From assembly GCA_904501865.1 (NCBI GenBank), contig CAJGCF010000002.1:1-48952 (forward strand): a DNA stretch of 48,952 bases. Reading direction: 5' to 3'. Source of the DNA: an uncultured Clostridia bacterium (GTDB lineage: Bacteria > Bacillota > Clostridia > Oscillospirales > CAG-272). A program made the position numbers and the translations under genes. Positions 8,615 through 48,952 of the stretch are shown one piece after another; positions within the stretch are counted from its first letter, which is position 1; each line of letters opens with the position of its first letter. The notes beneath the pieces were generated by a model. The model was not told the DNA's origin. It searched no databases and saw nothing but the letters and a program-made list of their open reading frames with translations.

Positions 8615-8646
8615 TTCCACCACTCCGTAAATTTGATTGATTTTAT

Positions 8647-25603: not shown

Positions 25604-25698
25604 AAATGTGGAATTTTAGCCACGTGACAATAATTGTCCAGTAATTTATGCCCGAAATATGTGGTTTAAAAAATATTAGAGCAAAGGGAAAATTGCAA

Positions 25699-27912
25699 AT
25701 GAAAACCAAAAGTATATTTCGCGCAATATTGCTATTCATTCTGATTATGACTTCGGCATTATTTATATGCTCATGCTCGCAGGATCCCGAGCAGACGGAG
25801 ATATATGAGGTAACCATAAAAAACAACAAGCAGACCGTTAGTCTGAAAGCTTTTCTTGACGATCAGTACATTGAGGAGCATAAGGGCGAGTCGGTGTATC
25901 TGCTGGCCTTGACTACTCCCTACACCGTGGAGCTTGACGATTCTGTCATAGTTTTGGCAGATGCAAAGGTCAAGGAAAAGTTGACTTTTGAATTCAAGCT
26001 GAATGACGAGAGTCAAGGCACGCATCTGTCGCGTGCGTTTGTGTTGGCACGCAAGTCATCAGATGCCGACGAAACGGATTCCGAATATATAGCTATTACC
26101 GATGCCGCATACATAAGCAATCCTGATGTTCTCGCGACGAACAAGGTCAAGCCTGTGGATCCGTCGGGAATAAAGGGCGTGTCATCGGACGATGTTTACG
26201 AGGCGGCATATCTGGGCGCGGAGCATATTTTGCTCGAGGCTTATATTAACGATATCCTTTTATACGAATATCAGCCGCAGGCTATTCATTATGTTTTTGA
26301 CGGCGTTTCATACTATTTTGACGAAGAGACCGTCAACCGTATGGATAAAGCGATAAAAGAGGCAAACGCTCTTGGATTGCGCGTTTATCTGCGAACAGCT
26401 CTTAAATATCCTGCCACCGACAAATACGGGGAATATGAAAAATCTCCTGTTCTATCTCTATATTGCCCCAAGATCAAAAAAGGATGCTCAGGTTATGCCG
26501 TGAATATGAATGACAGTGAAGCTTTCAGATATATTCAAGCATTTTATTCATTTCTCGCCGCAAGATATTCGGGGGATAACGGTAATGTGACCGATTACAT
26601 TATCGGAGACCGCGTGAATGAATATTCTTCATATTGCAATACATCTTATTCCAAGGAGGAGTTTGAAGGCATTTATCACGCTTGGGTGAGAGCGGCAAGC
26701 AATACCTTAAGATCCATAAACCCGTCTGCAGAGATATACATTTCGATAAGTAATGTGTGGAGAGAAGAAGGATCATCCTCCAATATAGGAGCGCAGGCCT
26801 TTCTGGAAAGATTTGCTACCCGTTCAAAATCCGGAGGAGATTTTGCATGGAGCGTGGCATTGAATTTGGGAGATGGGGAGGATCTTTCGTCCTTGTTATC
26901 GGGAGAGGGCTGGGAATATTCCACTCTCGGTATAAACAACATCAAGAGCTTTGTGGATCTTATGCACAGTGACGCTCTGCGGCACTTGGAAAAGGAAAGA
27001 AGGTACATTATAGACGGGCTTGCTCTATCGGAAAAGACCAGTGAAAAAAACAGAGCGGCATATTACGCATATTCCTATTATCGAGCTGCGGAGCTTGGAT
27101 TTGATGCTTTCATCTATTCGGCAAGAGAGGATGAGTCTTCGCTTTACAGCGCGGGAGGAAACAGATCTGAATTGTATTATGCGTTTCTTATGTGCGGCAG
27201 TAATATGACTACACAGCTTGAGGGATACGTATCAAAGGTAAAGGATGCGGAAATGCCGAATTTTGCAGAATATACCTCAAGAAAGTTAAAATATGAGCAG
27301 ACTGCCAAGCTTGAGCTTAGCTCGTCTGTTGTGAAAAACAGATCCGAGATACCCTTTGAGTTATATGAGCTTGAAGCGGCGGGCAGTGCATACAATGTCC
27401 GCATTAAGCTGAACAAGGACGCGGAAAGCGGGGATTATTACAAAACATTATTGCTTGAGTCCGACTCGTCAAAGTATATAGGAGCCGCGACCGTGGTCGG
27501 GGTGCCTGCTAAGGAGGTAATATCGTCGGGATATATCGGTGTTACGGTCTCAGCGGCGGACTGTGGCAAAATAGCTATTATCGTATCAAATCAACAGAAC
27601 TCAGCGGCTTACGTGGGCGAAACGGAGGTTATAGATGGCGAGATGACATATTATTTTAACATTACAGATCTTACGTCAGAAGTTAAATCATCAGATGCGC
27701 TCAACGTTTCCGTTTGCATCCTGCCTGATGCAGAAGAAGACGTTTCATGCGTAGAAATAAAGGACATTGCGCTATACGGATCGTCGCATAAAGGTGCTCG
27801 CACCGTAATAACCGTAGTCATCGTGGCGGTGTCTGCGCTTGCCTTGTGTGCCATTATGTTCTTGCTTGCAAGAAGTCGCAAAAGAAAGTTACGTAGTACT
27901 CACGACCAATAA
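25699..27912 (+). CDS. Surface-exposed DUF5722-like (glycoside-hydrolase-like TIM barrel) protein with an N-terminal lipoprotein signal and a C-terminal TM anchor
   Basis: I prefer the ATG at 25699: MKTKSIFRAILLFILIMTSALFICSCS has a lipobox. The central region (GIKGVSSDD, LGLRVYLRTAL, YIIGDRVNEY, IIDGLALSEK...AAYYAYSYYRAAELGFDAFIYSARED) resembles my recollection of the DUF5722 family. The C-terminus is TVITVVIVAVSALALCAIMFLLARSRKRK. Confidence 0.55.
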   Translation: MKTKSIFRAILLFILIMTSALFICSCSQDPEQTEIYEVTIKNNKQTVSLKAFLDDQYIEEHKGESVYLLALTTPYTVELDDSVIVLADAKVKEKLTFEFKLNDESQGTHLSRAFVLARKSSDADETDSEYIAITDAAYISNPDVLATNKVKPVDPSGIKGVSSDDVYEAAYLGAEHILLEAYINDILLYEYQPQAIHYVFDGVSYYFDEETVNRMDKAIKEANALGLRVYLRTALKYPATDKYGEYEKSPVLSLYCPKIKKGCSGYAVNMNDSEAFRYIQAFYSFLAARYSGDNGNVTDYIIGDRVNEYSSYCNTSYSKEEFEGIYHAWVRAASNTLRSINPSAEIYISISNVWREEGSSSNIGAQAFLERFATRSKSGGDFAWSVALNLGDGEDLSSLLSGEGWEYSTLGINNIKSFVDLMHSDALRHLEKERRYIIDGLALSEKTSEKNRAAYYAYSYYRAAELGFDAFIYSAREDESSLYSAGGNRSELYYAFLMCGSNMTTQLEGYVSKVKDAEMPNFAEYTSRKLKYEQTAKLELSSSVVKNRSEIPFELYELEAAGSAYNVRIKLNKDAESGDYYKTLLLESDSSKYIGAATVVGVPAKEVISSGYIGVTVSAADCGKIAIIVSNQQNSAAYVGETEVIDGEMTYYFNITDLTSEVKSSDALNVSVCILPDAEEDVSCVEIKDIALYGSSHKGARTVITVVIVAVSALALCAIMFLLARSRKRKLRSTHDQ

Positions 27913-27931
27913 CGCAAAGGTGGATTGTATT

Positions 27932-28954
27932 ATGAAAGCAACGCAGGAAAAAAGAAAAGTTGATTTTTTCTATCGTGATGACAGAGGAGGCACAGTGGTG
28001 CTCGGTTGCAGACCGCACCGTCACTATCACGTAGAGATAGTATATATGATAGAGGGTGCAATGTGTGCCCACATAGATTCCGATGAGTACAATGTGAGGT
28101 CCGGAGACATGCTCATCGTGTTTCCAAATAAGATACACAGATTCGTAGATCTTCAAAAAGGAAACAAATATAAGATCTTTATCATAAACCCCAATCTTGT
28201 GCCTGAGTTTGAGGCACAGATGTCGTCAAGCTCACCGATTAATCCTCTTATCAAAAACGCAAGGGATAATGCCCGACTTGATTCTGTGATAAACATAGTG
28301 GCAGATGCAAAGAATTTTCCCGAAAATCAAAGAGATTCTTTGATGAAGGGATATCTGCTCTCGTTTTTTGCGGAATTTTTGTCAATGATCGAGCTTGATT
28401 ACAACAGATCAGACGAAAGTCAGGCTATGAAAACGGTGGTTTTGTACTGCTCGCAGAATTTCACAAAAGAACTGTCCCTGTCCATGCTTGAGGACGAGCT
28501 CCACTTGAGCAGATATTATATATCCCATCTTTTTGGCGACAAGTTAGGCGTAAGATTCAATGATTACATCAACTCGCTTAGGATATCCGAGGCATGCCGA
28601 ATGCTCAGGGCCACGGATAAGACCATAACAGAGGTCTGCTATTCTTCGGGCTTCGGGACGCTCAGAACCTTCAACAGAGTTTTTATTAAACAGATAGGTG
28701 CGTCCCCATCCGATTACAGAAAAAACCACAATGGAAAATACTTTGACGCATCAATTTTCCCTGTTAGTGTTCCAGAGGTGGAATACGATACTCACGTCAA
28801 AAAAACTGTTGAGTTGCCTCAATATAATAGTCAGATGGCTGTCGATTGCACCGCAAGTTATGACGATTGCTGTGATGTCTGTAGTGATTGCGGAGACATC
28901 TGTGAAATCGAGGATGCTTGCATTCACGTCGACGGTTGCGACTGTACTTGGTAG
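27932..28954 (+). CDS. AraC family transcriptional regulator (cupin sensor, AraC HTH, and an unusual Cys/Asp-rich C-terminal tail)
   Basis: ATG at 27932 with an AAAGGTGG RBS. The cupin-like N-terminus is HRHYHVEIVYMIEG...GDMLIVFPNKIH. The HTH_AraC region is LSMLEDELHLSRYYISHLF...ITEVCYSSGFGTLRTFNRVFIKQIGASPSDYRK. About 75 further residues follow and end in DCTASYDDCCDVCSDCGDICEIEDACIHVDGCDCTW. Confidence 0.85.
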   Translation: MKATQEKRKVDFFYRDDRGGTVVLGCRPHRHYHVEIVYMIEGAMCAHIDSDEYNVRSGDMLIVFPNKIHRFVDLQKGNKYKIFIINPNLVPEFEAQMSSSSPINPLIKNARDNARLDSVINIVADAKNFPENQRDSLMKGYLLSFFAEFLSMIELDYNRSDESQAMKTVVLYCSQNFTKELSLSMLEDELHLSRYYISHLFGDKLGVRFNDYINSLRISEACRMLRATDKTITEVCYSSGFGTLRTFNRVFIKQIGASPSDYRKNHNGKYFDASIFPVSVPEVEYDTHVKKTVELPQYNSQMAVDCTASYDDCCDVCSDCGDICEIEDACIHVDGCDCTW

Positions 28955-29095: not shown

Positions 29096-31147
29096 ATGCA
29101 TTGGTCAGAGGAAATAGCTGAACGATTGATACAAAAGAATCCCGACAAGGAAGAATACGTCTGCGCCGCAGGTGTAAGCCCGTCGGGCTCTGTCCATATA
29201 GGAAACTTCAGAGATATCGCTACCCCTCTCTTTGTTGTAAAGGCTCTTGAAAAGAAGGGTAAAAAGGCAAAGCTTATAATATCTTGGGACGAGTTTGACC
29301 GTTGTCGCAAAATCCCCGCGAACGTCCAGGCGGTAGTAGGTGACGCATATGACAAGTATATCGGTTGTCCCTACGTTGATATTCCCGATCCGTTTGGATG
29401 TCACGAAAATTATGCGCGTCACTTTGAGGAGGAATTCCTTAATGCTATAAAGCCCTTTGGCATAAAATTTGAGTGTCGCTATCAGGCGGAGATGTACCGT
29501 TCGGGCAAATATACCGAGGATCTCATTGAGGCTTTGCGCAAGAGAGATGAAATTTTTGAAATTCTTGACTCCTTCAAGACCAAGGATATGACAAAGACCG
29601 AGGAGGAAAGACGCGCGGTGCATGATGCGGAAAAGTCGGAATATTATCCCGTAAGCATCTTCTGTCCCGAGTGTCACACCGACTTCACCAAGATTACTTC
29701 TCTTTCGGATGATTGCACAGAGGCAGAGTTTACATGCCGTTGCGGACATCACGGAAAATTCAATTTCCTTGAGAATTTCAACTGCAAGCTCGGCTGGAAG
29801 ATAGACTGGGCTATGCGTTGGAAATACGAGCAGGTGGATTTTGAGCCGGGCGGAAAAGATCATTCCGCGCCTACGGGCTCGTACAACAATTCAAAGGTCA
29901 TCGCAAAGAAGATATACGGACACGAGGCTCCTATTTATCAGGGATATGAGTTTATCGGTATTAAGGGCGTTGCGGGAAAGATGTCTTCATCATCGGGACT
30001 CAATATGACTCCCGAGCTCCTTCTCAAGCTCTATCAACCCGAAATAATTTTGTGGCTCTATTCTAAGACCGAGCCCACAAAGGCGTTCGACTTCTGCTTT
30101 GACGACGGAATACTTCGTCAGTACTTTGAATTTGATAAGATGTACAACGAGTATATATCGGGAACGGCAAGCGAATTTACTGCGACGGTTATGCACAACT
30201 GCGTGATTGATGGCAGAAAGCTTGAGACTGTCCCTATGTCTCTCTTGGTACAGCTTGGATCTATAGTTGATTTCAACGTTCCTATGCTGGAAACAGTGTT
30301 TGAAAAGATAGGAACTCCTTACAAGTACGAGCAATTCGCCGACAGACTTGACAGAGCTAAGTTCTGGCTTGAGCAGTGCGCACCCGATCAGGTCAATAAG
30401 CTGCGCGCGACACGTAACTTTGATGTCTGGGGCGAGCTTGACGAGAAGGAAAAGCGGGCCATCGCGGCTCTGTATGAGTATCTCTCCAAAGAGACCTATA
30501 CGCTTGACGAGCTCAACACTGAGCTTTATGCCATTCCTAAGAAAATATATCCCGATGTTACCGACCAGAAGGAGCTTAAGGGTATTCAGGGCAAGTTCTT
30601 CAAGACCGTCTACAAGCTTCTTATCAATAAGGAGCAGGGTCCGAGACTTTATCTCTTCCTTTACGCTATTGAAAAGGATAGATTTGTTCATCTTCTTGAC
30701 TTCTCAACATCTCAGACTGATGAGGAGAAAGCCATCGAGGCAAAGGCGGCGGCAGATGCTGCACCAGTGGCAGAGGAAAAGGTCTACGGCGAGCCTGATC
30801 CCGTTGAGCCCATTAAGGCAGAGTATGTTTCTATTGATGATTTCTCAAAGCTCGATCTCAGAGTCTGCAAGATCGTCAAGTGCCAGGAGATAAGAAAATC
30901 TCATTCCTGCTATAAGCTCACTCTCAATGACGGAATTGACGAGAGAGTTATAGTTTCAAGTATCAAGCACGACTACACACCCGAGGAGCTGGTTGGAAAG
31001 AAGATAATAGTTATCGCAAACCTCCAGCCGACAAGAATAACGGGAGTCAACAGCAACGGTATGCTTTTGGCGGCTACCAATAACGCTTGCGGTTGCAAGG
31101 TAATATTCGTTGACGATATGGTTCCAGAGGGCACACAGATACACTGA
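29096..31147 (+). CDS. lysK: Class I lysine--tRNA ligase fused to a C-terminal Trbp111/EMAPII-type tRNA-binding domain
   Basis: 683 aa. MHWSEEIAERL...GVSPSGSVHIGNFRDI carries the HIGH-type motif HIGN, and GKMSSSSG is the KMSKS-type motif; the overall N-terminus is like Borrelia/archaeal LysK. After an Ala/Glu-rich linker, residues about 575-683 (IDDFSKLDLRVCKIVKCQEIRKSHSCYKLTLNDG...IIVIANLQPTRITGVNSNGMLLAA) look like the OB-fold tRNA-binding domain found on MetRS C-termini and in CsaA. Confidence 0.85.
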   Translation: MHWSEEIAERLIQKNPDKEEYVCAAGVSPSGSVHIGNFRDIATPLFVVKALEKKGKKAKLIISWDEFDRCRKIPANVQAVVGDAYDKYIGCPYVDIPDPFGCHENYARHFEEEFLNAIKPFGIKFECRYQAEMYRSGKYTEDLIEALRKRDEIFEILDSFKTKDMTKTEEERRAVHDAEKSEYYPVSIFCPECHTDFTKITSLSDDCTEAEFTCRCGHHGKFNFLENFNCKLGWKIDWAMRWKYEQVDFEPGGKDHSAPTGSYNNSKVIAKKIYGHEAPIYQGYEFIGIKGVAGKMSSSSGLNMTPELLLKLYQPEIILWLYSKTEPTKAFDFCFDDGILRQYFEFDKMYNEYISGTASEFTATVMHNCVIDGRKLETVPMSLLVQLGSIVDFNVPMLETVFEKIGTPYKYEQFADRLDRAKFWLEQCAPDQVNKLRATRNFDVWGELDEKEKRAIAALYEYLSKETYTLDELNTELYAIPKKIYPDVTDQKELKGIQGKFFKTVYKLLINKEQGPRLYLFLYAIEKDRFVHLLDFSTSQTDEEKAIEAKAAADAAPVAEEKVYGEPDPVEPIKAEYVSIDDFSKLDLRVCKIVKCQEIRKSHSCYKLTLNDGIDERVIVSSIKHDYTPEELVGKKIIVIANLQPTRITGVNSNGMLLAATNNACGCKVIFVDDMVPEGTQIH

Positions 31148-40001: not shown

Positions 40002-40007
40002 TATAAT
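40002..40007 (+). promoter_or_regulatory. Candidate -10 element for the ABC/GldG/DUF4340 operon
   Basis: TATAAT at 40002-40007. Only a poor -35 is available at 16-18 nt spacing; TTTACA lies 14 nt upstream, which is too close. The leader would be about 100 nt. Confidence 0.35.
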
Positions 40008-40113: not shown

Positions 40114-41202
40114 ATGATCAAGATAGAGCATCTTACCAAAAATTACGGCTCAAATTGTGCCGTGGACGATATCAGCTTTGAGATCGGTGCGGGCGAAACG
40201 GTGGGACTTCTCGGTCCTAACGGTGCGGGCAAGAGCACGACTATGAATATTCTTACGGGATATCTGTCGGCTTCGGCAGGAAGAGTGTCAGTCGACGGAA
40301 TAGATATAATGAATGATCCTATAGGTGCGAAAAGGCTTATAGGATATCTTCCCGAGCAGCCTCCCGTGTATCAGGATATGACGGTAGATGAATATCTGAA
40401 CTTCAATTATGACCTCAAGGGCTGTACCTTTGACAGAAAACAGCATCTTGCCGAAATATGCGAGGTGGTGAGAATAACTGACGTGCGCAAAAGACTTATC
40501 CGCAATCTCTCGAAGGGATATAAGCAGAGAGTGGGAGTTGCGCAGGCTCTTATAGGAAATCCACCTGTTATAATATTCGACGAGCCCACGGTCGGTCTTG
40601 ATCCTAAGCAGATCATAGAGATTAGAAATCTTATAAGAACGCTTGGAAAAAATCATACGGTGGTGCTATCCACTCACATACTGCAAGAGGTGCAGGCTGT
40701 CTGTGACAGAATAATCATTATAAACAAGGGAAAGATCGTTGCGGACGAGAAGACCGAAAATATTACCAGGGCAGTGGAGAGCAATCATCGCTTCAATGTT
40801 AAGATATGCGGAGCGTCAAGGGACGTTTTAAACGTTATCAAGAATATTCCCGGTGTTGTATTCGCGGAGCTCCTTCCTCAAAAGGACGGAGACGCAAATT
40901 GCTACGTTATTGAGACTGAAAACGGACTGGACATAAGAAAAAAGCTGTTCTTTACTCTTGCCGAAAGAGGATATGCTATGGTGGGGCTTGAGGCTTTGGG
41001 AATGAGCCTTGAGGACATATTTATAAGTGTGGTGGATAAGACCGAGCAGGCAAAATCTGCTCAAGGATCCAAATACGAAAGAGGCGCGGCGAAAAAACAT
41101 GTTGCGCGTACACGTACCACCCTTGAGTCCGACGTTGCCGATACGCTTGTAAAGGATGCCGAAAAGCGCAGAGAGGATGCGCCCGATGAGCCCGAAGATT
41201 GA
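40114..41202 (+). CDS. ABC transporter ATP-binding protein (ABC-2/GldA-like, with a charged C-terminal tail)
   Basis: ATG at 40114 with a GAGGAA RBS. Walker A is GPNGAGKST, the signature is LSKGYKQR and Walker B is IIFDEPTVGLD. A DUF4162-like C-domain follows, and then a roughly 55-aa Lys/Glu/Asp/Ala-rich tail. Confidence 0.9.
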   Translation: MIKIEHLTKNYGSNCAVDDISFEIGAGETVGLLGPNGAGKSTTMNILTGYLSASAGRVSVDGIDIMNDPIGAKRLIGYLPEQPPVYQDMTVDEYLNFNYDLKGCTFDRKQHLAEICEVVRITDVRKRLIRNLSKGYKQRVGVAQALIGNPPVIIFDEPTVGLDPKQIIEIRNLIRTLGKNHTVVLSTHILQEVQAVCDRIIIINKGKIVADEKTENITRAVESNHRFNVKICGASRDVLNVIKNIPGVVFAELLPQKDGDANCYVIETENGLDIRKKLFFTLAERGYAMVGLEALGMSLEDIFISVVDKTEQAKSAQGSKYERGAAKKHVARTRTTLESDVADTLVKDAEKRREDAPDEPED

Positions 41203-41239
41203 CGGCTCGCAAAAATGTTTTTGAAAGGACATAGACAAG

Positions 41240-41986
41240 ATGTTCGCTATTTATAAAAAAGAAATGCGCTCGTATTTCACAAATCCCATAGGCTACGTTT
41301 TTTGTGGGATATTTCTTGCCTTTTCGGCAATTCTTTGCTGCTATACGACGATATTGTCAAAAAGTTATGATACGTCGGCGTATTTTACGCTTATGATATT
41401 TGCCCTCGTAATACTTATACCGCTCCTTACCATGAGGCTTTTCTCAGAAGAGAAAAAAATGCGTACCGAGCAGCTATTACTTACGGCTCCCGTTACTCTT
41501 ACCGGAATGGTTATGGGTAAGTTTTGCGCGGCGTTCAGCCTTTTCTTTAGTTGCGTGGCAGTTTCTTGCATAAATCTCATACCGCTTTACGTTATCGCGG
41601 CGGCAGAAAGAGGCAATATGGCGTATGATACCACCTACGTAGGCCCCGCCACCGCGGAAATAATCGGCTGTATGATTGGTATGGTATTTATAGGCGCGGC
41701 ATTTATAGCCATTGGAACCTTTATTTCTTCGTTTGCCGAAAATCAGCTTGCCGCAGCTATAACTACTATGGCAGTTATGGTTGCGCTTACGGGAATCGGT
41801 ATTATCAGCAACTTTATAAACGTTTATTGGATAAGAGTGGTGATAAGCTGGATATCCGTGGTTGACAGATTTGAAAACTTCAGTCAGGGTATCTTTGATA
41901 TCTCCGCGATAGTGTATTTTGTATCACTTGCGTTTCTGTTCATTTTCCTTACGGTGCGAGTTTACGAAAAGCGCCGTTGGAGTTGA
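41240..41986 (+). CDS. ABC-2 type permease (GldF-like)
   Basis: 248 aa. The N-terminus MFAIYKKEMRSYFTNPIGYVFCGIFLAF is typical of ABC-2/GldF-like permeases. There are about 6 hydrophobic helices. Confidence 0.8.
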   Translation: MFAIYKKEMRSYFTNPIGYVFCGIFLAFSAILCCYTTILSKSYDTSAYFTLMIFALVILIPLLTMRLFSEEKKMRTEQLLLTAPVTLTGMVMGKFCAAFSLFFSCVAVSCINLIPLYVIAAAERGNMAYDTTYVGPATAEIIGCMIGMVFIGAAFIAIGTFISSFAENQLAAAITTMAVMVALTGIGIISNFINVYWIRVVISWISVVDRFENFSQGIFDISAIVYFVSLAFLFIFLTVRVYEKRRWS

Positions 41987-42116
41987 TTCCTTTATTTAGG
42001 TAGCGTGGAAAAGTCTTTCATAGTATGTAAATGAATCTTTTCACGCGCGAATTTTGTCGAGGGGCAGGATTCGTCAACAACATCTGTGTCGCCATGGGCG
42101 GCGGAATGGAGATAGA

Positions 42117-43676
42117 ATGAACAAAAAAGTAAGAAAACGAAGACTTAAATACGGCGGCGTATCGGTTTTGCTGTCAGTTCTGGTCATATCCGCGGTCGTT
42201 ATATTAAACGTGATAGTGGGCGCGCTTGCTATGAGATATGAGTGGATGTACAGAGATATGTCTGTGTCCGCCGTGTACTCAATAAGTGATAATTGCCGCG
42301 AATATCTTGAGGATTTTGTTATTTCAAGGGTGAATGACGTCAACTTGACTCGCCCCGAGAGCGAGAGACAAAAAATAAAGCTCATATTTTGCGATGAGCA
42401 GAAGAATATAGAGCAAAACAACTCCTGGAAGCACGTTTACGATTCTATATATGAGGTCGTGGAAATGTTTCCCAATCACATTGAAACAGAGTATCTTAAT
42501 ATATGGGAGAATCCTTCTGTCGCGAGGACTTACGGAGTCTCCTCGGTTTACGACGTGGTCTGCATATTTGGCGACAGACACGAGACTATGAACGTTGCGG
42601 ATTTTTACGTTTACGGCGGTGACGATGCGTCAACCCCTACGGCGTATAACGGTGAAAAGATAATTGCGTCCTGCCTTATGAGAATAACGCAGGATAGAAC
42701 ACCTATGTGTTATTTTACAGCGAATCACGGCGAGGATTTCAGCGATTATGAGTTGATAAGAGCCGTGGTGGAGTCGGGATATACTGTTGGATTTCTGGAT
42801 CTTGCGACAGAGGATATTCCCTCGGATTGTGAGCTTTTGATAACGTTTGATCCAAAGCAGGATTTCCAAATATCTGATTCTAATTCCAGTGTATCGGAGA
42901 TAACAAAGCTTGAGAAATATATGAGCTCGGGCGGAAGATATATGGTGTTCGTGTCCGCCGACACGTTTGCCTCGGGTCCTCGCGAGAATTTTGAGAGCTT
43001 TCTTGCCGATTGGGGTGTGAGCTATATGCATTCGGCGGCCGACGATGGCGTAGAGAACTGCTACACCGTAAGAGATCTTGCGAATTCCTTGACGGTAGAC
43101 GGATATACTGTTTTGTCTCAAAAAGCCGATAAGGGAACAGGGGCGGAGACGGTGAGCGATGTTACTCGTCCGTGTGCTTTTGGAAATTCTACGTGTATAG
43201 CCTTTTCTGAATCATTTGAGGACGACGGCAACGGCACCCTTTTGTGTGAGGTGAACGGACAGAAAAGGACGGTGTCCGCTGTGTTCACTTCTCATATAGG
43301 AGCGGTGGCGTGGTCGGGCGGTCGAGCGGTAGCGAGAGCTGACAGTGAGCCATTTGTTTTGATGTCCCTGTCCGAGCAAGAGTGTGAGAATGGCGATACG
43401 GCGTATCTTTTTGCTTCAGCATCAACAGAAATGGTCAAGGGAGACCTTATGCGCTCTGCCGCGCTTGGAAATAATAGCGCGATATCCGAAGCTATAAGAG
43501 CTATGGGCAAGAAAAATACACCGTCGGGACTTGCTATGAAGCAGTTTGAGGGCGATAGGATAGAGAGCCTTACCACGTCGCTGGCAAACAGTATCACCGT
43601 GGCACTGGTCGTAGCCCCGATAGTTATAGTGAGCGTAATTGGAATAGTAGTGCTCGTCAGAAGAAAAAATTCATAA
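42117..43676 (+). CDS. GldG-like ABC-transporter auxiliary protein, paralog 1
   Basis: ATG at 42117 with GGAG 7 nt upstream. After the basic start KKVRKRRLKY comes TM helix GGVSVLLSVLVISAVVILNVIVGALA. A roughly 450-aa exoplasmic domain follows, beginning ...VYSISDNCREYLEDF like the GldG motif DLT..YTLS..T. The C-terminal TM is ITVALVVAPIVIVSVIGIVVLVRRK. Confidence 0.7.
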   Translation: MNKKVRKRRLKYGGVSVLLSVLVISAVVILNVIVGALAMRYEWMYRDMSVSAVYSISDNCREYLEDFVISRVNDVNLTRPESERQKIKLIFCDEQKNIEQNNSWKHVYDSIYEVVEMFPNHIETEYLNIWENPSVARTYGVSSVYDVVCIFGDRHETMNVADFYVYGGDDASTPTAYNGEKIIASCLMRITQDRTPMCYFTANHGEDFSDYELIRAVVESGYTVGFLDLATEDIPSDCELLITFDPKQDFQISDSNSSVSEITKLEKYMSSGGRYMVFVSADTFASGPRENFESFLADWGVSYMHSAADDGVENCYTVRDLANSLTVDGYTVLSQKADKGTGAETVSDVTRPCAFGNSTCIAFSESFEDDGNGTLLCEVNGQKRTVSAVFTSHIGAVAWSGGRAVARADSEPFVLMSLSEQECENGDTAYLFASASTEMVKGDLMRSAALGNNSAISEAIRAMGKKNTPSGLAMKQFEGDRIESLTTSLANSITVALVVAPIVIVSVIGIVVLVRRKNS

Positions 43677-43712
43677 TTATGATTGATACGTATAAGAAAG
43701 GAGGTAAATGAG

Positions 43713-45446
43713 GTGAAAGATAATGAAAAAAAATATACATCAAACGGCATTCCGCACGCCGAGAGCACTTTTAAAAGAAGCTCGAAGGCAATAACTGTTA
43801 TTACTTTGGCGGTAGTTGTTGCGGTGATTGTTCTCAACCTTATTATCTCCGCTATCGGAGACGTCAACTTGTGGTACGTAGATATGAGCAGCCCTAAATA
43901 CAAGGACGAGGTGTCTTCACTATATACCGTTTCCGATGTATTAAAGTCGCTCCTTGACTCGCAGGTGATTCCAAAGATAAATGAGATCAATGGGGATCGA
44001 GAAAAGACGGGTGAGGATCCTATCAAGCTTGAGATCGTATTCTGTGCGGATCGCGATGATATCGAGAGCGATGGACTAATGCGATATATAAGCTATACGG
44101 CGCGTGGGATAAAGAAGCTGTATCCGGATCTTGTGGAAGTAAAATACGTAAATATAACAAGAGACCCGTCCGCAGTCCAGAAATACAAGACTACGTCCGC
44201 CGCAAGCATTTATAGCTCCGACGTTATATTGGAATTTGGCACGGAGTATATTATCAGGAACGTTTCCTCGTTTTTTTATACGGATTCCACAGCGGACGAG
44301 CCCTGGGCATATAACGGAGAGCAAAGACTTGCGTCTATGATGCTTTCCGTAACTCGCGCGGAATCTCCCATATGTGCTATTACCAACAATCACGGTGAGA
44401 GCTTATTTGATTCTCACGGCAAGGTCAAGCAGGAATATTCTGAATTTATAAAGCTCATAGATGCCGCGGGCTACGATATTGAGTTTTTGGATCTTGAAAA
44501 GCAGGACATACCCGAGAATTGCCGAATGATGATCACCTTTGATCCCTCTGAGGATTTCAAGGCTTACGGCGACCTTGGTGAAAATAACGTTTCCGAAATA
44601 GAAAAGCTCGACAAGTACATTGATGCTTCAAACGCGTTTTTCTATATCTGCGGCAGAAATACCCCTGTGCTAAAAAATCTTGAGGAGTATTTGACAGAGT
44701 GGGGAATTACGGTCGCGAGAGCAAGTGATGAGGACGATGAATATGAAAATTATGCTTTGAGAGACCTCGTTAATTGCACGGATTCGGGTGACGTTATAGT
44801 TGGCAATTACGCAGTTGAGGGAATTGGAGCTACTCTTACCAAGGATATGAGAAATCAGGCATATCCCGCAAAGGTCATATTCGAAGACTCAACGGCGATA
44901 GTTCCCGCGCAGAATTACGTCAAAATATACGTTGACGAGAGCGCTGAAAGCGGAAATTCGGCTTATGCCTACTACAGCTACTACAGAAACGGAATTATGA
45001 GGAGTATGCTCGACGTGTTCACGTCTTATCCTACCGCCTTTGCCGAGATAGACGGACATACGTACGAGGTGGCGACCCAACAAAGCAGCTTCAAATTAAT
45101 GACGATAACACAGGAGAGCCGAGAGGTTCAGGAGAGCAATTACAACGTTGTAAGTCAGTCATCCTACGTGTTGGCATTGGCGTCCACGGATTTCCTTAAA
45201 AACGACGTTTTGAGTGCTTCTGCTTACGGCAACGCTGACGTTCTACTGTCCGCACTCAGAAACGTAAGCGGAGAGGCAGTCCCCGCCAACGTAAGTCTCA
45301 AAACTCTTTACGAGTATGAGATAGAGAATACCGCTGCGCATGAAACGGTTGACGTGAAGGCTTGGTCATCCTGGTTGACAATAGCGCCATTGGCGATATC
45401 CCTTGCGGTGGGAGTAGTAGTAACGGTGCGCAGAAAATACAGATAA
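43713..45446 (+). CDS. GldG-like ABC-transporter auxiliary protein, paralog 2
   Basis: Same architecture as paralog 1: N-terminal TM ITVITLAVVVAVIVLNLIISAIG, then LYTVSDVLKSLL, then C-terminal TM WLTIAPLAISLAVGVVVTVRRK. Shared blocks include AYNGE(K/Q), C(Y/A)(F/I)T.NHGE, GY...FLDL and DIP..C..(L/M)ITFDP. I prefer the GTG at 43713 (AAAGGAGG 8 nt upstream); the ORF track starts at the TTG at 43683. Confidence 0.7.
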   Translation: MKDNEKKYTSNGIPHAESTFKRSSKAITVITLAVVVAVIVLNLIISAIGDVNLWYVDMSSPKYKDEVSSLYTVSDVLKSLLDSQVIPKINEINGDREKTGEDPIKLEIVFCADRDDIESDGLMRYISYTARGIKKLYPDLVEVKYVNITRDPSAVQKYKTTSAASIYSSDVILEFGTEYIIRNVSSFFYTDSTADEPWAYNGEQRLASMMLSVTRAESPICAITNNHGESLFDSHGKVKQEYSEFIKLIDAAGYDIEFLDLEKQDIPENCRMMITFDPSEDFKAYGDLGENNVSEIEKLDKYIDASNAFFYICGRNTPVLKNLEEYLTEWGITVARASDEDDEYENYALRDLVNCTDSGDVIVGNYAVEGIGATLTKDMRNQAYPAKVIFEDSTAIVPAQNYVKIYVDESAESGNSAYAYYSYYRNGIMRSMLDVFTSYPTAFAEIDGHTYEVATQQSSFKLMTITQESREVQESNYNVVSQSSYVLALASTDFLKNDVLSASAYGNADVLLSALRNVSGEAVPANVSLKTLYEYEIENTAAHETVDVKAWSSWLTIAPLAISLAVGVVVTVRRKYR

Positions 45447-45494
45447 TTATAAACTGACCTTAAAAGGTCGTGATAAAAACAAAGGACACACTAT

Positions 45495-48476
45495 ATGTCA
45501 GAGATAAACAAGAACACGATCACGGGAGAATCCGCTGTCAAACGTGTAAAGCAGAAAAATCTGCTAAACAGGCAACGAACAGCTGTTATACTGATGGCTG
45601 TTGCTATAGCATTGTTGATAGTGGCTCTTCTTGTAGTTAATTATATAGTGCAGATATACGCCTTTGACGATGTTGACGGCACCCGTTATTACATCAAAAA
45701 GGTGGACGGTAGCTATGCCTTGTGCTATAAAAGCGGAGAGGTCTGCGACAAAAACGCGGAGGGATATTATCAAACCGCACTCGGAACACTTGTAAAAATA
45801 GATTCAAAGAGCGGAGAGAGCTCGGTCTATGCCGTAGTTCATACCTCGGATACCGAGGAGATAGGGTATGCTCAGTACGTGCTGATGTTCAAGCAGCTGA
45901 CGTATGATGAAAACTCCACTAAGGACAGCTCCAAAATAATAAAATCCATCGAGGTGCATAACGAGCACGGCACGTATACGTTTGAGCGTGATGAAAATAT
46001 GGATTTTGTTATAGGCAATCACGAAAGCACACCATACGACAGAACGGTATTTGCACAGCTTGCCGTGGCTTGCGGATATACCTTATCTATGAAAAGGCTT
46101 GATACGCCCGTTACACTTGCCGACGGCAGTATTGATTATAGCGAATACGGGCTCGCCTCTGAGATCAGAACCAAGGTGCATATAGATGAAAACGGCAATC
46201 AAGTGGAAACAGAATATGAATATGAGCCCGCCTGGTATATTATCACGACCATGTCGGGAGAGAGCCATAAGGTGATTATCGGAGATATGACTGTCACAGA
46301 GACAGGATATTACGCCCGGTATGAGGGCAGGGATACCATCTACGTTCTTGGCACGTCGGGAATTACTGATCTCGTGCTTGGAAAAGTAGAAGCCTTTGTG
46401 ACACCAACTCTGGTATATCCTATGGGAGAGACCAATTATTTCAACGTGTCGAATTTCATAATATATGACGACATAGATTACGAGACCATTATGGCAGAGC
46501 TTGAAAAGCTCTACGGTGACGGTCAGGTCGCAGACGAGGATGAAATATATGCCGCTTATGAAAAATATCTTGAGGAATACAGCCGCAAAATATGTGATTT
46601 TTCATATAAGAGCCTTGAGGAGCGCGAAGGTACACTCAATGCTCACATTCCCTACGTGTCGGAGCTTGAATATGCCGATGGGTATTATGTCAATAGCTCA
46701 AGCATAGATAAGGTTTTGTATGGATTTTACAAGACCTCATTTGCCGAGGTGGTAAAGCTTTCGCCAAACGAGGAAGACCTTGTACAATGCGGTTTGGAAT
46801 ACGCTCCTCATATCGTGTATTTCGTCTATCACACCACTGATGATAACGGAGATAAGGCTTACGTCCAGAATTACGTGGAAATAAGCGAAATGAATGAGGA
46901 CGGAATATATTACGCATATTCGCCAAACTATGATATGATAGTTTCCGTGGATAGCAGCAGCTTTGATTTTCTCGAATGGGACGAGCTTATGTGGTATGAT
47001 CCAAGCTATATACAACTTGATATATCTCACGTTAAGGACATCATAATAGAATCCCCGAATTTCAGTACGCATTTTGAAATAGAGGATTCTGCGTCAAAAT
47101 ACGCTACCTATACCGCAAAAAGCGGAAAGAGCTTCAAATACGGAGACATTGAGTATAAAATCGTTAAGGATGAGTTAACTGGAAGATATATTCTCACGTG
47201 TAATGGAGCCGCGGTGGATCCCACCTACGAGGGAGATTATCTTATAACGCCCGCAGTCTATACTCCCGGGGTGCCTCAAGGAGAGAATTATATTTTGGCG
47301 GAAACCTCAGAGGTGGATACCAATAAGGACGGCACCAATGACGCATATCTTTACTATTTCTACGTGATAGGATACAATGGGCAAGAATATACTCTTGCGG
47401 CACAGGTGGTCCTGACGGATATGAATGGAAACAGAGTAGCCGAGGATCAGCTGGTCTGGGGGCAGTCGGTGCTTGAGACGGATTATTTCGTCACCAATAG
47501 CGGATACGTGTATTTTACAGGTAAGTTTTCTTATATAGGAAGATATCTTGAGGAAACCTACGGAGAAAAACGAGGCTGGTGGGCGAGCGGAAACGTGTTC
47601 GCTACTTCCGATGGACAGTATGTGCTCGTAGATGCCGATACGGGTGATTGGAGCGTAATAGGCGATACCTCCTGCGGAATATATTTCGCAGATAGGACGG
47701 ATAGCAGATTGGCGCAGCGAGCCGTGGATCTGCCTGCTCTTTATAACGATCAGGGCAAGCTGACAAGATACCCCGAGACTTATTATCCCACCACGGACAA
47801 AAAGATACAGTACAATGAAGAATCGGGCAAGATAATGGCCTATAATAAGACAAGCAAGGTATGGGAGAATATCACGCACAGTGATTGTACCATAGGCGTG
47901 TGGAACGAGGGTGCATATTACGTTCTGGACAATTCAAATATTGTAGTGGTGAATAAAGAAAGCGGAGACTGGGGTATAGTTACCGTATCTCATGATGTGC
48001 TTTATATTGCGGATATAATTGCTGATGGAAGGTTACTCGATTATACCGTTGCCGCGACCAATGAGTACAGTAAATCAGACACGGCAAGCGCTATGGAAAA
48101 TTTCCAGCAGTTCTATAAGGCACTGCTTTACGGCTCTCTTGAGGGAATGACTGAGCTTGACAAGGACGAAAAAGCCGCTCTTGGCGCGCTTGATGATTTT
48201 TCTAATAGTGATGTAAATAATCCATGCCAGCTCAAAATAACAATTGTTGCGAGCGATATAAAGGGAAATAAGCGAAATACTGTTTACAGATTCTATCAAT
48301 ATTCCGAAAGAAAATCTTATATAACTATAGAGACATTGGGCTCAAATGCTTCTGAATCTAATCCGGAAAGAGCGTACGGTAATTTCTACGTGTTACGTTC
48401 CTTTGTGGATAAAATAATTTCAGATGCTGAGAAAGTGGTGGACGGAGAAGCGGTCACAGCGACGTCCAAATATTGA
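45495..48476 (+). CDS. Very large DUF4340-like membrane-anchored protein
   Basis: 993 aa. A single N-terminal TM (RTAVILMAVAIALLIVALLVVNYIV) is followed by a beta-rich exoplasmic region. IKSIEVHNEHGTYTFERDENMDFVIGNHESTPYDRTVFAQLAVACGYT fits the DUF4340 pattern as I recall it. It is last in the operon, which is the usual position of DUF4340 next to GldG-like genes. Confidence 0.6.
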   Translation: MSEINKNTITGESAVKRVKQKNLLNRQRTAVILMAVAIALLIVALLVVNYIVQIYAFDDVDGTRYYIKKVDGSYALCYKSGEVCDKNAEGYYQTALGTLVKIDSKSGESSVYAVVHTSDTEEIGYAQYVLMFKQLTYDENSTKDSSKIIKSIEVHNEHGTYTFERDENMDFVIGNHESTPYDRTVFAQLAVACGYTLSMKRLDTPVTLADGSIDYSEYGLASEIRTKVHIDENGNQVETEYEYEPAWYIITTMSGESHKVIIGDMTVTETGYYARYEGRDTIYVLGTSGITDLVLGKVEAFVTPTLVYPMGETNYFNVSNFIIYDDIDYETIMAELEKLYGDGQVADEDEIYAAYEKYLEEYSRKICDFSYKSLEEREGTLNAHIPYVSELEYADGYYVNSSSIDKVLYGFYKTSFAEVVKLSPNEEDLVQCGLEYAPHIVYFVYHTTDDNGDKAYVQNYVEISEMNEDGIYYAYSPNYDMIVSVDSSSFDFLEWDELMWYDPSYIQLDISHVKDIIIESPNFSTHFEIEDSASKYATYTAKSGKSFKYGDIEYKIVKDELTGRYILTCNGAAVDPTYEGDYLITPAVYTPGVPQGENYILAETSEVDTNKDGTNDAYLYYFYVIGYNGQEYTLAAQVVLTDMNGNRVAEDQLVWGQSVLETDYFVTNSGYVYFTGKFSYIGRYLEETYGEKRGWWASGNVFATSDGQYVLVDADTGDWSVIGDTSCGIYFADRTDSRLAQRAVDLPALYNDQGKLTRYPETYYPTTDKKIQYNEESGKIMAYNKTSKVWENITHSDCTIGVWNEGAYYVLDNSNIVVVNKESGDWGIVTVSHDVLYIADIIADGRLLDYTVAATNEYSKSDTASAMENFQQFYKALLYGSLEGMTELDKDEKAALGALDDFSNSDVNNPCQLKITIVASDIKGNKRNTVYRFYQYSERKSYITIETLGSNASESNPERAYGNFYVLRSFVDKIISDAEKVVDGEAVTATSKY

Positions 48477-48486
48477 TAAAAATATG

Positions 48487-48535
48487 CGTTTCTCTCTTGA
48501 AAACAGAATTTTTGAGAGAGAAACGTGGATTTTTA
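48487..48535 (+). terminator. Hairpin terminator after the ABC/GldG/DUF4340 operon
   Basis: CGTTTCTCTC (48487-48496) pairs with GAGAGAAACG (48516-48525). TGGATTTTT follows. Confidence 0.6.
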
Positions 48536-48584: not shown

Positions 48585-48613
48585 TTGACAAGGCAGTTTA
48601 TTTGTGATATAAT
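48585..48613 (+). promoter_or_regulatory. Perfect consensus sigma-A promoter for the tRNA operon
   Basis: TTGACA (48585-48590), a 17-nt spacer, then TATAAT (48608-48613) with a TGn extension. The leader hairpin TCGGTG-N13-CACCGA sits just before the first tRNA. Confidence 0.7.
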
Positions 48614-48656
48614 GTTCAAGCGTTCGGTGTGAGCAAGAGCCTTCACCGATAAATAT

Positions 48657-48733
48657 GGCGGGATAGCTCAGTTGGCTAGAGCAACCGGTTCATACCCGGT
48701 AGGTCATGGGTTCAAGTCCAATTCCCGCTACCA
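48657..48733 (+). tRNA. tRNA-Met (anticodon CAU), elongator-like
   Basis: Hand-folded cloverleaf of 77 nt. The acceptor is GGCGGGA/TCCCGCT (G1-U72), the D arm GCTC/GAGC, and the anticodon arm ACCGG-TTCATAC-CCGGT. The T arm ATGGG-TTCAAGT-CCAAT has one G-A mismatch. CCA is encoded. I cannot formally exclude tRNA-Ile2(CAU). Confidence 0.88.
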
Positions 48734-48735
48734 TA

Positions 48736-48755
48736 TTCCGTGCTACCGCACGGAA
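48736..48755 (+). other. Perfect 8-bp hairpin filling the inter-tRNA spacer
   Basis: TTCCGTGC-TACC-GCACGGAA occupies 20 of the 24 nt between tRNA-Met and tRNA-Glu. It may be a processing determinant. Confidence 0.5.
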
Positions 48756-48757
48756 AA

Positions 48758-48832
48758 GGCCCGTTGGTCAAGCGGTTAAGACACGGCCCTTTCACGGCTG
48801 TAACATGGGTTCGATTCCCGTACGGGTCACCA
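48758..48832 (+). tRNA. tRNA-Glu (anticodon UUC)
   Basis: 75 nt. GGCCCGTTGGTCAAGCGGTTAAGACACGGCCCTTTCACGGCTGTAACATGGGTTCGATTCCCGTACGGGTCACCA is nearly identical in pattern to Firmicutes tRNA-Glu. The anticodon loop is CTTTCAC. CCA is encoded. Confidence 0.92.
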
Positions 48833-48881
48833 AAAAAGAAAGAGTAGCACGACGTGCTGCTCTTTCTTTTTTGGTGACCCG
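48823..48881 (+). terminator. 59-nt perfect hairpin (28 bp, GAC triloop) that includes the last 10 nt of tRNA-Glu; probable operon terminator
   Basis: CGGGTCACCAAAAAAGAAAGAGTAGCAC-GAC-GTGCTGCTCTTTCTTTTTTGGTGACCCG. Every position pairs, with one G-U. The descending arm carries the T-run. Confidence 0.6.
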
Positions 48882-48925: not shown

Positions 48926-48952
48926 GGTTCGATTCCCGTAGCACGACGTGCT
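48926..48952 (+). repeat. Partial copy of the tRNA-Glu T-arm fused to a copy of the hairpin apex (truncated by the window end)
   Basis: GGTTCGATTCCCGTA (48926-48940) equals 48808-48822. GTAGCACGACGTGCT (48938-48952) equals 48844-48858. The two blocks share the GTA junction. Confidence 0.45.

Follow-up and report, generated by a model that had tools for sequence, protein, structure and literature searches.

The window analysed here is a 48,952-nt stretch of contig CAJGCF010000002.1 (assembly GCA_904501865.1, forward strand) from an uncultured Clostridia bacterium of the Oscillospirales lineage CAG-272. Five co-oriented genes on its plus strand, encoding an ATP-binding cassette (ABC) ATPase, an ABC-2 permease, two GldG paralogs and a 993-aa protein with a DUF4340 domain, form one operon. 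We propose that their products assemble in the cytoplasmic membrane of this monoderm bacterium into a GldA/GldF/GldG-class complex of the ABC-2 (type V) kind that serves a housekeeping role. That the operon specifies a single such complex, in which two unlike GldG proteins pair up and act, with a DUF4340 subunit, on the outer face of the membrane, is in our judgement the probable interpretation of the locus. The module itself is widespread and already annotated, and a specialist would not be surprised by it. What is new is a clade-specific form, present in uncultured gut Clostridia, which combines a duplicated GldG with a DUF4340 partner of doubled size.

The two traits occurred together without exception. 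A DUF4340 gene was the direct 3' neighbour of the GldG gene in 14 loci. Two GldG genes were present in all loci with a DUF4340 partner of at least 985 aa (8/8), while a single GldG within a four-gene module was present in all loci with a shorter partner (6/6; 515, 535, 690, 713, 761 and 835 aa). The single-GldG loci (L007-L010, L012 and L013) belong to more distant Clostridia, and their ATPases and permeases were 63-68% and 49-63% identical to those of the window, respectively. The coupling of the duplication to the doubling in partner size in 14 of 14 loci argues for a physical contact between GldG and the DUF4340 protein, and for a GldG position that is able to turn asymmetric within the complex. 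This strict association represents a natural experiment and sets a testable constraint on the fit between GldG and DUF4340 proteins. The finding has limited practical value, as the host Clostridia of gut and rumen are uncultured.

The features of the operon are as follows.

40002..40007, plus strand: TATAAT hexamer, candidate -10 box found by reading the sequence, about 107 nt 5' of the ATPase start
40114..41202, plus strand: ABC ATPase of the GldA class, 362 aa (PF00005, 106.6 bits; NCBIfam TIGR03522)
41240..41986, plus strand: ABC-2 permease of the GldF class, 248 aa (TIGR03518; about six hydrophobic segments by hydropathy)
41987..42116, plus strand: intergenic spacer of 130 nt at the permease-GldG1 junction, with a species-specific, structured insertion of about 110 nt
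42117..43676, plus strand: GldG1, divergent extra paralog, 519 aa (PF09822; transmembrane helices 17-35 and 495-513)
43713..45446, plus strand: GldG2, 577 aa from GTG 43713 (the open reading frame opens with TTG 43683, which would give 587 aa; a transmembrane helix at each end)
45495..48476, plus strand: DUF4340 protein, acidic, tyrosine-rich and predicted to be exoplasmic, 993 aa (PF14238; one N-terminal transmembrane helix, residues 30-48)
48485..48527, plus strand: intrinsic terminator ending the operon (19-bp stem, 5-nt loop, T-run; top terminator-like call)

A single ancient duplication of GldG

GldG1 and GldG2 aligned as full-length paralogs with 29% identity (E 3e-69). In a neighbour-joining tree of 20 GldG proteins, the GldG1 and the GldG2 sequences formed separate clades with 100% bootstrap support each, and the two clades mirrored each other. 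The GldG2 clade joined the single-copy GldG proteins of the nearest lineages (89% bootstrap). This grouping identifies GldG2 as the ancestral orthologue and GldG1 as the divergent extra copy of one old duplication, as read from the sequence tree.

In the single-GldG relatives, genes linked to the cell wall recurred beside the module. A PF02578 (YfiH/PgeF-like) gene lay directly upstream of it in L008 (3752-4552) and L012 (3724-4551), glmM and a hexapeptide transferase gene adjoined it in L007 (7500-9590) and L013 (443-2495), and genes for surface proteins with SLH domains did so in L008 (9651-11996) and L009 (11981-13318). Such cell-wall-type neighbours may be taken as a weak hint at a wall-related role. 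Directly 3' of the four-gene module of L012, an open reading frame (10231-11778) encodes a protein of 515 aa with one transmembrane helix and, near its N-terminus, a zinc-ribbon-like CxxC...CxxC motif. It was considered as a relative of the operon proteins and rejected, being unrelated to any of them.

Conservation and genomic setting

The five-gene order was kept in seven related Oscillospiraceae/Eubacteriales contigs: a twin of the window with 98% identity, which is the NCBI contig JAZOYD010000002.1 of a metagenome-assembled genome (MAG), the reference-genome loci L001, L002, L004 and L005, and the more distant L011 and L014. L003, the fifth reference match, is a 5.4-kb contig and was left out of the gene-order comparison. 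A first-pass annotation of the window, made from the letters and their translations, had proposed to survey the gene neighbourhood, and the block proved to be co-conserved. Orthologues of every operon protein occurred in the same order in related genomes at 51-78% identity, and the operon is therefore not a product of chance. The ATPase was 75-78% identical to its orthologues and the permease 72-77%, against 51-60% in the three exoplasmic proteins; the ectodomains evolve faster than the cytoplasmic and membrane parts (72-78%). Large-protein identity ranged over 45-60% in the related contigs, with 53-56% in L001, L002, L004 and L005 and about 45-50% in L011 and L014.

A divergent ahcY gene was located upstream of the operon in 7/7 loci, followed by mnmG wherever the contig extended that far and, in the four reference loci, by rsmG after mnmG. 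The window as a whole is a typical origin-proximal (oriC-type) housekeeping region of Firmicutes with yidC, jag, mnmE, mnmG, rsmG, parA, parB and serS. Its GC content was uniform, and that of the operon matched the remainder. With this housekeeping setting and uniform composition, the operon looks native and constitutive rather than mobile.

Operon ends and junctions

Reading of the open reading frames confirmed the five same-strand genes of the first-pass annotation, in the order ATPase, ABC-2 permease, GldG1, GldG2 and 993-aa protein. At the 5' end, a -10 region had been placed near position 40002. The TATAAT hexamer is indeed there, but a canonical -35 box was not found 16-18 nt upstream of it, and the hexamer was not among the calls of a promoter scan. 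A promoter of the operon at this box is plausible. The operon leader matched no Rfam family. At the 3' end, the predicted hairpin terminator was recovered as the top terminator call, and this one strong terminator closes the five-gene unit. Downstream of it follows a separate 12/12 consensus promoter and then genes for tRNA-Met and tRNA-Glu. In the related genomes the operon junctions measured 9-46 nt or overlapped, which fits a single operon.

The 130-nt gap between the permease and GldG1 genes, regarded earlier as a possible origin of independent transcripts, is real. The insertion that it harbours was limited to the window and the 98% twin among the loci compared, and the same junction in the relatives comprised 9-18 nt or an overlap. 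The spacer folds with -42 kcal/mol (z = -2.96). It showed no U-tract, no match to Rfam, no internal terminator and no convincing promoter, the sole promoter-like match (9/12) overlapping the start codon; a second copy of the insertion was sought in the window and not found. Judged by its sequence, the insertion could be a regulatory element or a remnant.

The ATPase and the permease

The translation of the ATPase contains the Walker A (GPNGAGKST), signature (LSKGYKQR) and Walker B (IIFDEPTVGLD) motifs described before, with an intact catalytic glutamate. Its best NCBIfam match was GldA (TIGR03522, 314.4 bits, residues 2-305), below the equivalog cut-off of 402.6. The C-terminal domain had been called DUF4162-like. 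The corresponding Pfam family, PF13732, scored only weakly (15.8 bits, cut-off 27.4), but the domain was covered by the GldA and DrrA models. The canonical motifs of the nucleotide-binding domain (NBD) together with a C-terminal domain of the DrrA/GldA type place the protein among the ABC-2 or type V exporters. In a sequence search of the PDB, the closest solved NBDs were those of ABCA1/3/4/7 (E ~1e-57), followed by LptB and NosF (NosF E 1e-36). The highly charged tail of roughly 55 aa, likewise reported earlier, was found to be 57 residues long (306-362; 41029-41199) with 12 K/R and 14 D/E (46% charged). It is retained as a motif in the relatives, for example LETELAENMVKDAAAKREED in L004, and might dock a cytoplasmic partner, as the first-pass annotation suggested.

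The 248-aa permease, also recognised before as an ABC-2 protein, matched GldF best among the NCBIfam models (TIGR03518, 125.9 bits, full length), below the equivalog cut-off of 288.5. A match to a Pfam ABC-2 membrane family had been expected, and four families (ABC2_membrane_2/3/4/5) did match, but each with a score under its gathering score. Neither the sequence nor a permease profile retrieved a solved relative from the PDB, NosY included.

The two GldG paralogs

Hydropathy confirmed the earlier description of two paralogs with a transmembrane helix at each end. Topology and context are those of the GldG family, with N- and C-terminal helices flanking a large exoplasmic domain and genes adjoining an ABC-2 permease and an ATPase. 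For GldG2 the preferred start codon is GTG 43713, located 8 nt 3' of AAAGGAGG and called as the start in the twin contig as well. From the sequence, translation most likely begins there rather than at TTG 43683.

GldG1 passed the PF09822 (ABC_transp_aux) profile with 42.3 bits against a gathering (GA) threshold of 34.7 over residues 202-317, and 8/10 of the aligned GldG1, GldG2 and single-copy relatives matched the same family. Neither paralog matched the GldG equivalog model TIGR03521 at E <= 0.1. Both possess the invariant residues of the family (GldG1 numbering), namely F91-C92, E180, T201-x-x-H204-x-E206, D249, E261, W299-G300 and D320, and with these residues retained both appear functional. 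Three elements were also invariant in the distant single-copy GldG proteins: N31, an asparagine within the N-terminal transmembrane helix, the single cysteine of F91-C92 and the H204-x-E206 motif. C92 occupies the position of a thioredoxin-like active site. These invariant positions point to a contact within the membrane and a site on the exoplasmic side, both conserved.

The fold was assessed on an AlphaFold2 model of GldG1 alone (predicted local distance difference test (pLDDT) 85, predicted template modelling score (pTM) 0.80). The model comprises a thioredoxin-like subdomain, a GIFT (GATase1-like) domain and a beta-rich C-terminal domain. The best PDB match in Foldseek was the N-terminal GIFT domain of mouse IFT52 (5fms; E 4e-9, probability 1.0), with a target-normalised template modelling score of 0.72-0.74 and 13-14% sequence identity. 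The thioredoxin-like subdomain matched 1fo5 by profile (E 2.8e-5). Apart from this subdomain, PDB sequence searches with GldG1 and with the GldG family profile found no informative solved relative. A catalytic triad of the GATase type was considered as well and rejected by inference from the alignment of invariant residues, because the invariant H-x-E follows the first strand of the domain, away from the GATase position, and because the invariant cysteine belongs to the thioredoxin-like subdomain.

The expanded DUF4340 protein

The 993-aa protein, with the single N-terminal transmembrane helix described before, carries a net charge of -77 and 94 tyrosine residues. Its assignment to DUF4340 held in that PF14238 was passed (36.8 bits, GA 25), but the match is confined to residues 208-293 (46116-46373). 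Pfam scans of six segments of the protein at E <= 10 found nothing beyond this one stretch. A PDB sequence search gave no informative solved relative. The AlphaFold2 model was confident (pLDDT 86.1, pTM 0.72) and is mostly beta.

The alignment to shorter homologues covers residues 27-534 and 865-993 and thereby delimits a clade-specific, beta-rich insertion of about 330 aa (residues 535-865; 47097-48089). In the 515-aa form the equivalent region spans about 25 aa, and in the forms of 761-835 aa about 110 aa. Self-comparison with hhalign detected a short beta-hairpin motif repeated at about 688-735 and 793-840 (YVLVDADTGDW / YYVLDNSNIVVVNKESGDW); no repeated DUF4340 units were found among the segments. 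With the 993-aa family as profile, an exhaustive search of 1.84 billion representatives yielded only 655 clusters (E <= 1e-3). Their lengths were graded, with few full-length proteins of about 1000-1100 aa, many of 650-900 aa and others of about 500 aa matching the core alone, and all members bearing names were MAG proteins of Clostridia. A scan of metagenome contigs with a single protein gave no match.

Some family members of about 1065-1095 aa contain an additional N-terminal Flg_new segment (PF09479, Listeria-Bacteroides repeat) before the body that they share with the 993-aa protein. These members are the protein encoded at 8001-11282 of L011 and P0066, P0069-P0072, P0111, P0115-P0118 and P0120.

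Other features of the window

Amid the housekeeping genes, the window encodes an 811-aa Sel1-repeat protein (6188-8623, minus strand; PF08238, 316.8 bits). At 25648-28954 on the plus strand, the gene for a 754-aa DUF5722 protein is followed, with a slight overlap, by that for an AraC-family regulator with a cupin sensor domain. By their domains the two may form a substrate-responsive pair for glycan utilisation. At 29096-31147 on the plus strand, the window encodes a class I lysyl-tRNA synthetase (PF01921) whose C-terminus is fused to a tRNA_bind domain (PF01588); the same fusion occurs near the operon in L011 (15634-17679). Beyond the terminator of the operon, the region 48585-48832 contains a perfect 12/12 sigma-70 consensus promoter with an extended TG directly before tRNA-Met (CAT) and tRNA-Glu (TTC). 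Rfam searches of the whole window found these two tRNAs and nothing else. A short inverted repeat, AGCACGACGTGCT, is located at 48846-48858 and again at the end of the window (48940-48952).

Proposed complex and its rivals

In the proposed complex, a catalytically competent ATPase dimer would drive a dimer of the permease with its six predicted helices. The three large proteins are predicted by hydropathy to face outward. The ancestral four-gene form would have displayed one GldG species, probably as a homodimer, and one DUF4340 protein on the outer face. After the single duplication of GldG in this clade, a GldG1-GldG2 heterodimer would most likely have replaced the homodimer and created an asymmetric platform, and the DUF4340 partner would have grown in parallel to about 1000 residues, leaving about 1,900 acidic, beta-rich residues outside the membrane. 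The heteromeric GldG pair is a reasonable inference from the sequences. Through its movements the permease might pass an amphipathic component of the envelope that is embedded in the membrane, for instance a lipid or a lipid-linked glycan, on to the GldG/DUF4340 scaffold, or the ATP-driven movements might be passed to this scaffold mechanically. In either case the scaffold would then act within or across the cell wall. Within the composition proposed here, substrate hand-off is slightly favoured over pure mechanotransmission because the ABCA proteins provide the nearest NBDs, because of the analogy to Wbp1, and because of the weak cell-wall neighbours in other lineages. A bolder version holds that the duplicated GldG and the enlarged DUF4340 protein (about 1000 aa) together create an asymmetric, wall-spanning conduit on an ABC-2 engine, through which a lipid-linked wall polymer or a lipid would reach the cell surface. 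We consider this version unlikely. If true, the conduit would be a monoderm counterpart, passing through peptidoglycan, of the Lpt bridge or of the extracellular tunnel of ABCA proteins.

Several observations weigh against the proposed complex. The window GldG2 had no Pfam match of its own, so that the GldG/ABC_transp_aux profile anticipated for both paralogs was passed by GldG1 only. The tally of duplication and expansion comprises 14 loci that are phylogenetically non-independent. Foldseek comparison of the 993-aa model with PDB and BFVD gave no informative match, merely beta-propeller and tail-fibre noise of low template modelling score and low probability, and the model thus provides no pointer to a tunnel, groove or binding site. 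The equivalog thresholds of GldA, GldF and GldG were missed. The cell-wall hints from gene neighbourhoods are weak and confined to other lineages, and the structured 130-nt spacer might contain an internal start or some regulatory element. Finally, the complex, its stoichiometry and its substrate are proposals drawn from sequence and fold comparison.

A pure mechanotransducer like NosDFY or FtsEX, in which nothing crosses the membrane and the exoplasmic assembly matures, folds, positions or activates a surface protein or wall enzyme, is a doubtful but serious contender. The permease falls into the ABC-2 group containing GldF, and NosF ranks among the solved NBDs nearest to the ATPase. What GldA activity supports in F. 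johnsoniae is the stability of the lipoproteins GldJ and GldK, and not any known export. IFT52 uses its GIFT domain as a scaffold between proteins, and GldG1 has a thioredoxin-like subdomain with an invariant single cysteine. However, neither the operon nor its conserved neighbourhood encodes a client protein, the permease profile misses NosY and every other solved chain, and the ABCA NBDs score far above NosF.

An efflux or immunity pump for drugs, bacteriocins or lantibiotics, of the DrrAB or lantibiotic-protection type and with unusually large accessory proteins, is highly unlikely. DrrA (205 bits) and a lantibiotic protection ATPase (171 bits) were the second and third NCBIfam matches of the ATPase, and its C-terminal domain resembles DrrA weakly; yet both scores are well under their cut-offs and under that of GldA. 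The locus has no sensor kinase, regulator or biosynthetic genes beside it and has kept its place in an oriC-proximal housekeeping region across deep divergence, and about 1,900 exoplasmic residues are atypical of such pumps. To our knowledge, a monoderm Clostridium has neither a type IX secretion system (T9SS) nor outer-membrane lipoproteins. Gliding in Bacteroidota relies on both, and a gliding or surface-motility apparatus functionally homologous to the Flavobacterium GldAFG proteins is the least credible reading of all. It has in its favour that GldA and GldF were the best profile matches and that the family is named after GldG. All three equivalog thresholds failed, however, with no match whatever to TIGR03521, and the module is widespread in non-gliding lineages, e.g. 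SAR11 and Verrucomicrobium. We therefore rank substrate hand-off first and mechanotransmission of the NosDFY type a close second, and regard both efflux and gliding as unlikely.

Comparison with known systems

The first-pass annotation had assigned the locus to a GldA/GldF/GldG-class module with a DUF4340 protein, and the profile matches and the GldG1 fold uphold this class. It had gone further in equating the gene order with the gliding architecture of Flavobacterium, which does not stand: gldA of F. johnsoniae (Fjoh_1516) is unlinked from gldF and gldG (Fjoh_2722/2721), dnaN follows gldG in F. psychrophilum, and no DUF4340 protein is among the Gld proteins of Flavobacterium. The proteins also fell short of all three equivalog models for the GldA, GldF and GldG of Bacteroidota. 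Nor is the module without precedent in monoderms. The exoproteome of the monoderm Caldicellulosiruptor bescii contained a PF09822 protein, and NCBI names of Clostridia MAG proteins include 'Gldg family protein' and 'DUF4340 domain-containing protein'. Literature on a function in Firmicutes yielded nothing past this proteomic detection, and a characterised homologue of high identity, sought in NCBIfam and PDB, did not turn up.

Modules of the GldG/DUF4340 type are spread across many phyla, and GldAFG are required for gliding of Flavobacterium. The order ATPase, permease, GldG and DUF4340 is a recognised and widespread one that, according to a preprint, is conserved in the SAR11 clade (HIMB59). 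The preprint presents an AlphaFold-Multimer octamer of four homodimers, DUF4340 included, and proposes DUF4340 as a new transporter subunit. In Verrucomicrobium spinosum, a DUF4340 gene is essential.

Compared with Flavobacterium, the ATPase signature LSKGYKQR is close to the LSKGYRQR of F. johnsoniae GldA, and GldF and GldG of that species are similarly an ABC-2 permease of about 240 aa and a protein of about 560 aa whose large non-cytoplasmic domain lies between two terminal transmembrane helices. In contrast to Flavobacterium GldAFG, the proteins described here missed the equivalog cut-offs and gave no match to the GldG equivalog model. Flavobacterium furthermore has one GldG, an unlinked gldA and no DUF4340 gene in its gld set, and it is a diderm with a T9SS. 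Closely comparable are the four-gene modules of other Clostridia and of other phyla (HIMB59 of the SAR11 clade; the DUF4340 gene of Verrucomicrobium), which share the gene order, the protein families and the N-terminal, middle and C-terminal core of the DUF4340 protein. Unlike these modules with one GldG and a DUF4340 protein of 515-835 aa, the operon of the window has two anciently diverged GldG proteins, and its 993-aa partner has gained a beta domain at the N-terminal side as well as the insertion of about 330 aa.

Three further systems resemble the module in part. NosDFY is a model of mechanotransmission without transport, in which an ABC-2 module drives the extracytoplasmic NosD. It likewise combines an ABC-2-type ATPase, a small permease (six transmembrane helices, compared with about six hydrophobic segments here) and a large extracytoplasmic protein; it differs in that the permease profile shows no similarity to NosY, in having a beta-helix in place of the GIFT and thioredoxin-like domains of GldG, and in its copper-enzyme context, which is missing here. 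The ABCA proteins are type V exporters whose very large extracellular domains receive membrane lipid. ABCA1/3/4/7 offer the nearest solved NBD sequences, whereas they are single-chain full transporters with extracellular domains unrelated in sequence, and lipid handling is not indicated for the operon proteins. The GIFT domain is common to IFT52 and to Wbp1, a luminal subunit of the oligosaccharyltransferase, and sugar binding has been proposed for it, not demonstrated. IFT52 is cytoplasmic, unlike GldG, and Wbp1 was absent from the top fold matches of the GldG1 model. As in OST48/Wbp1, however, the GIFT domain of GldG1 would lie on the exoplasmic (there luminal) side; in OST48/Wbp1 it stands beside a membrane enzyme that uses a lipid-linked oligosaccharide.

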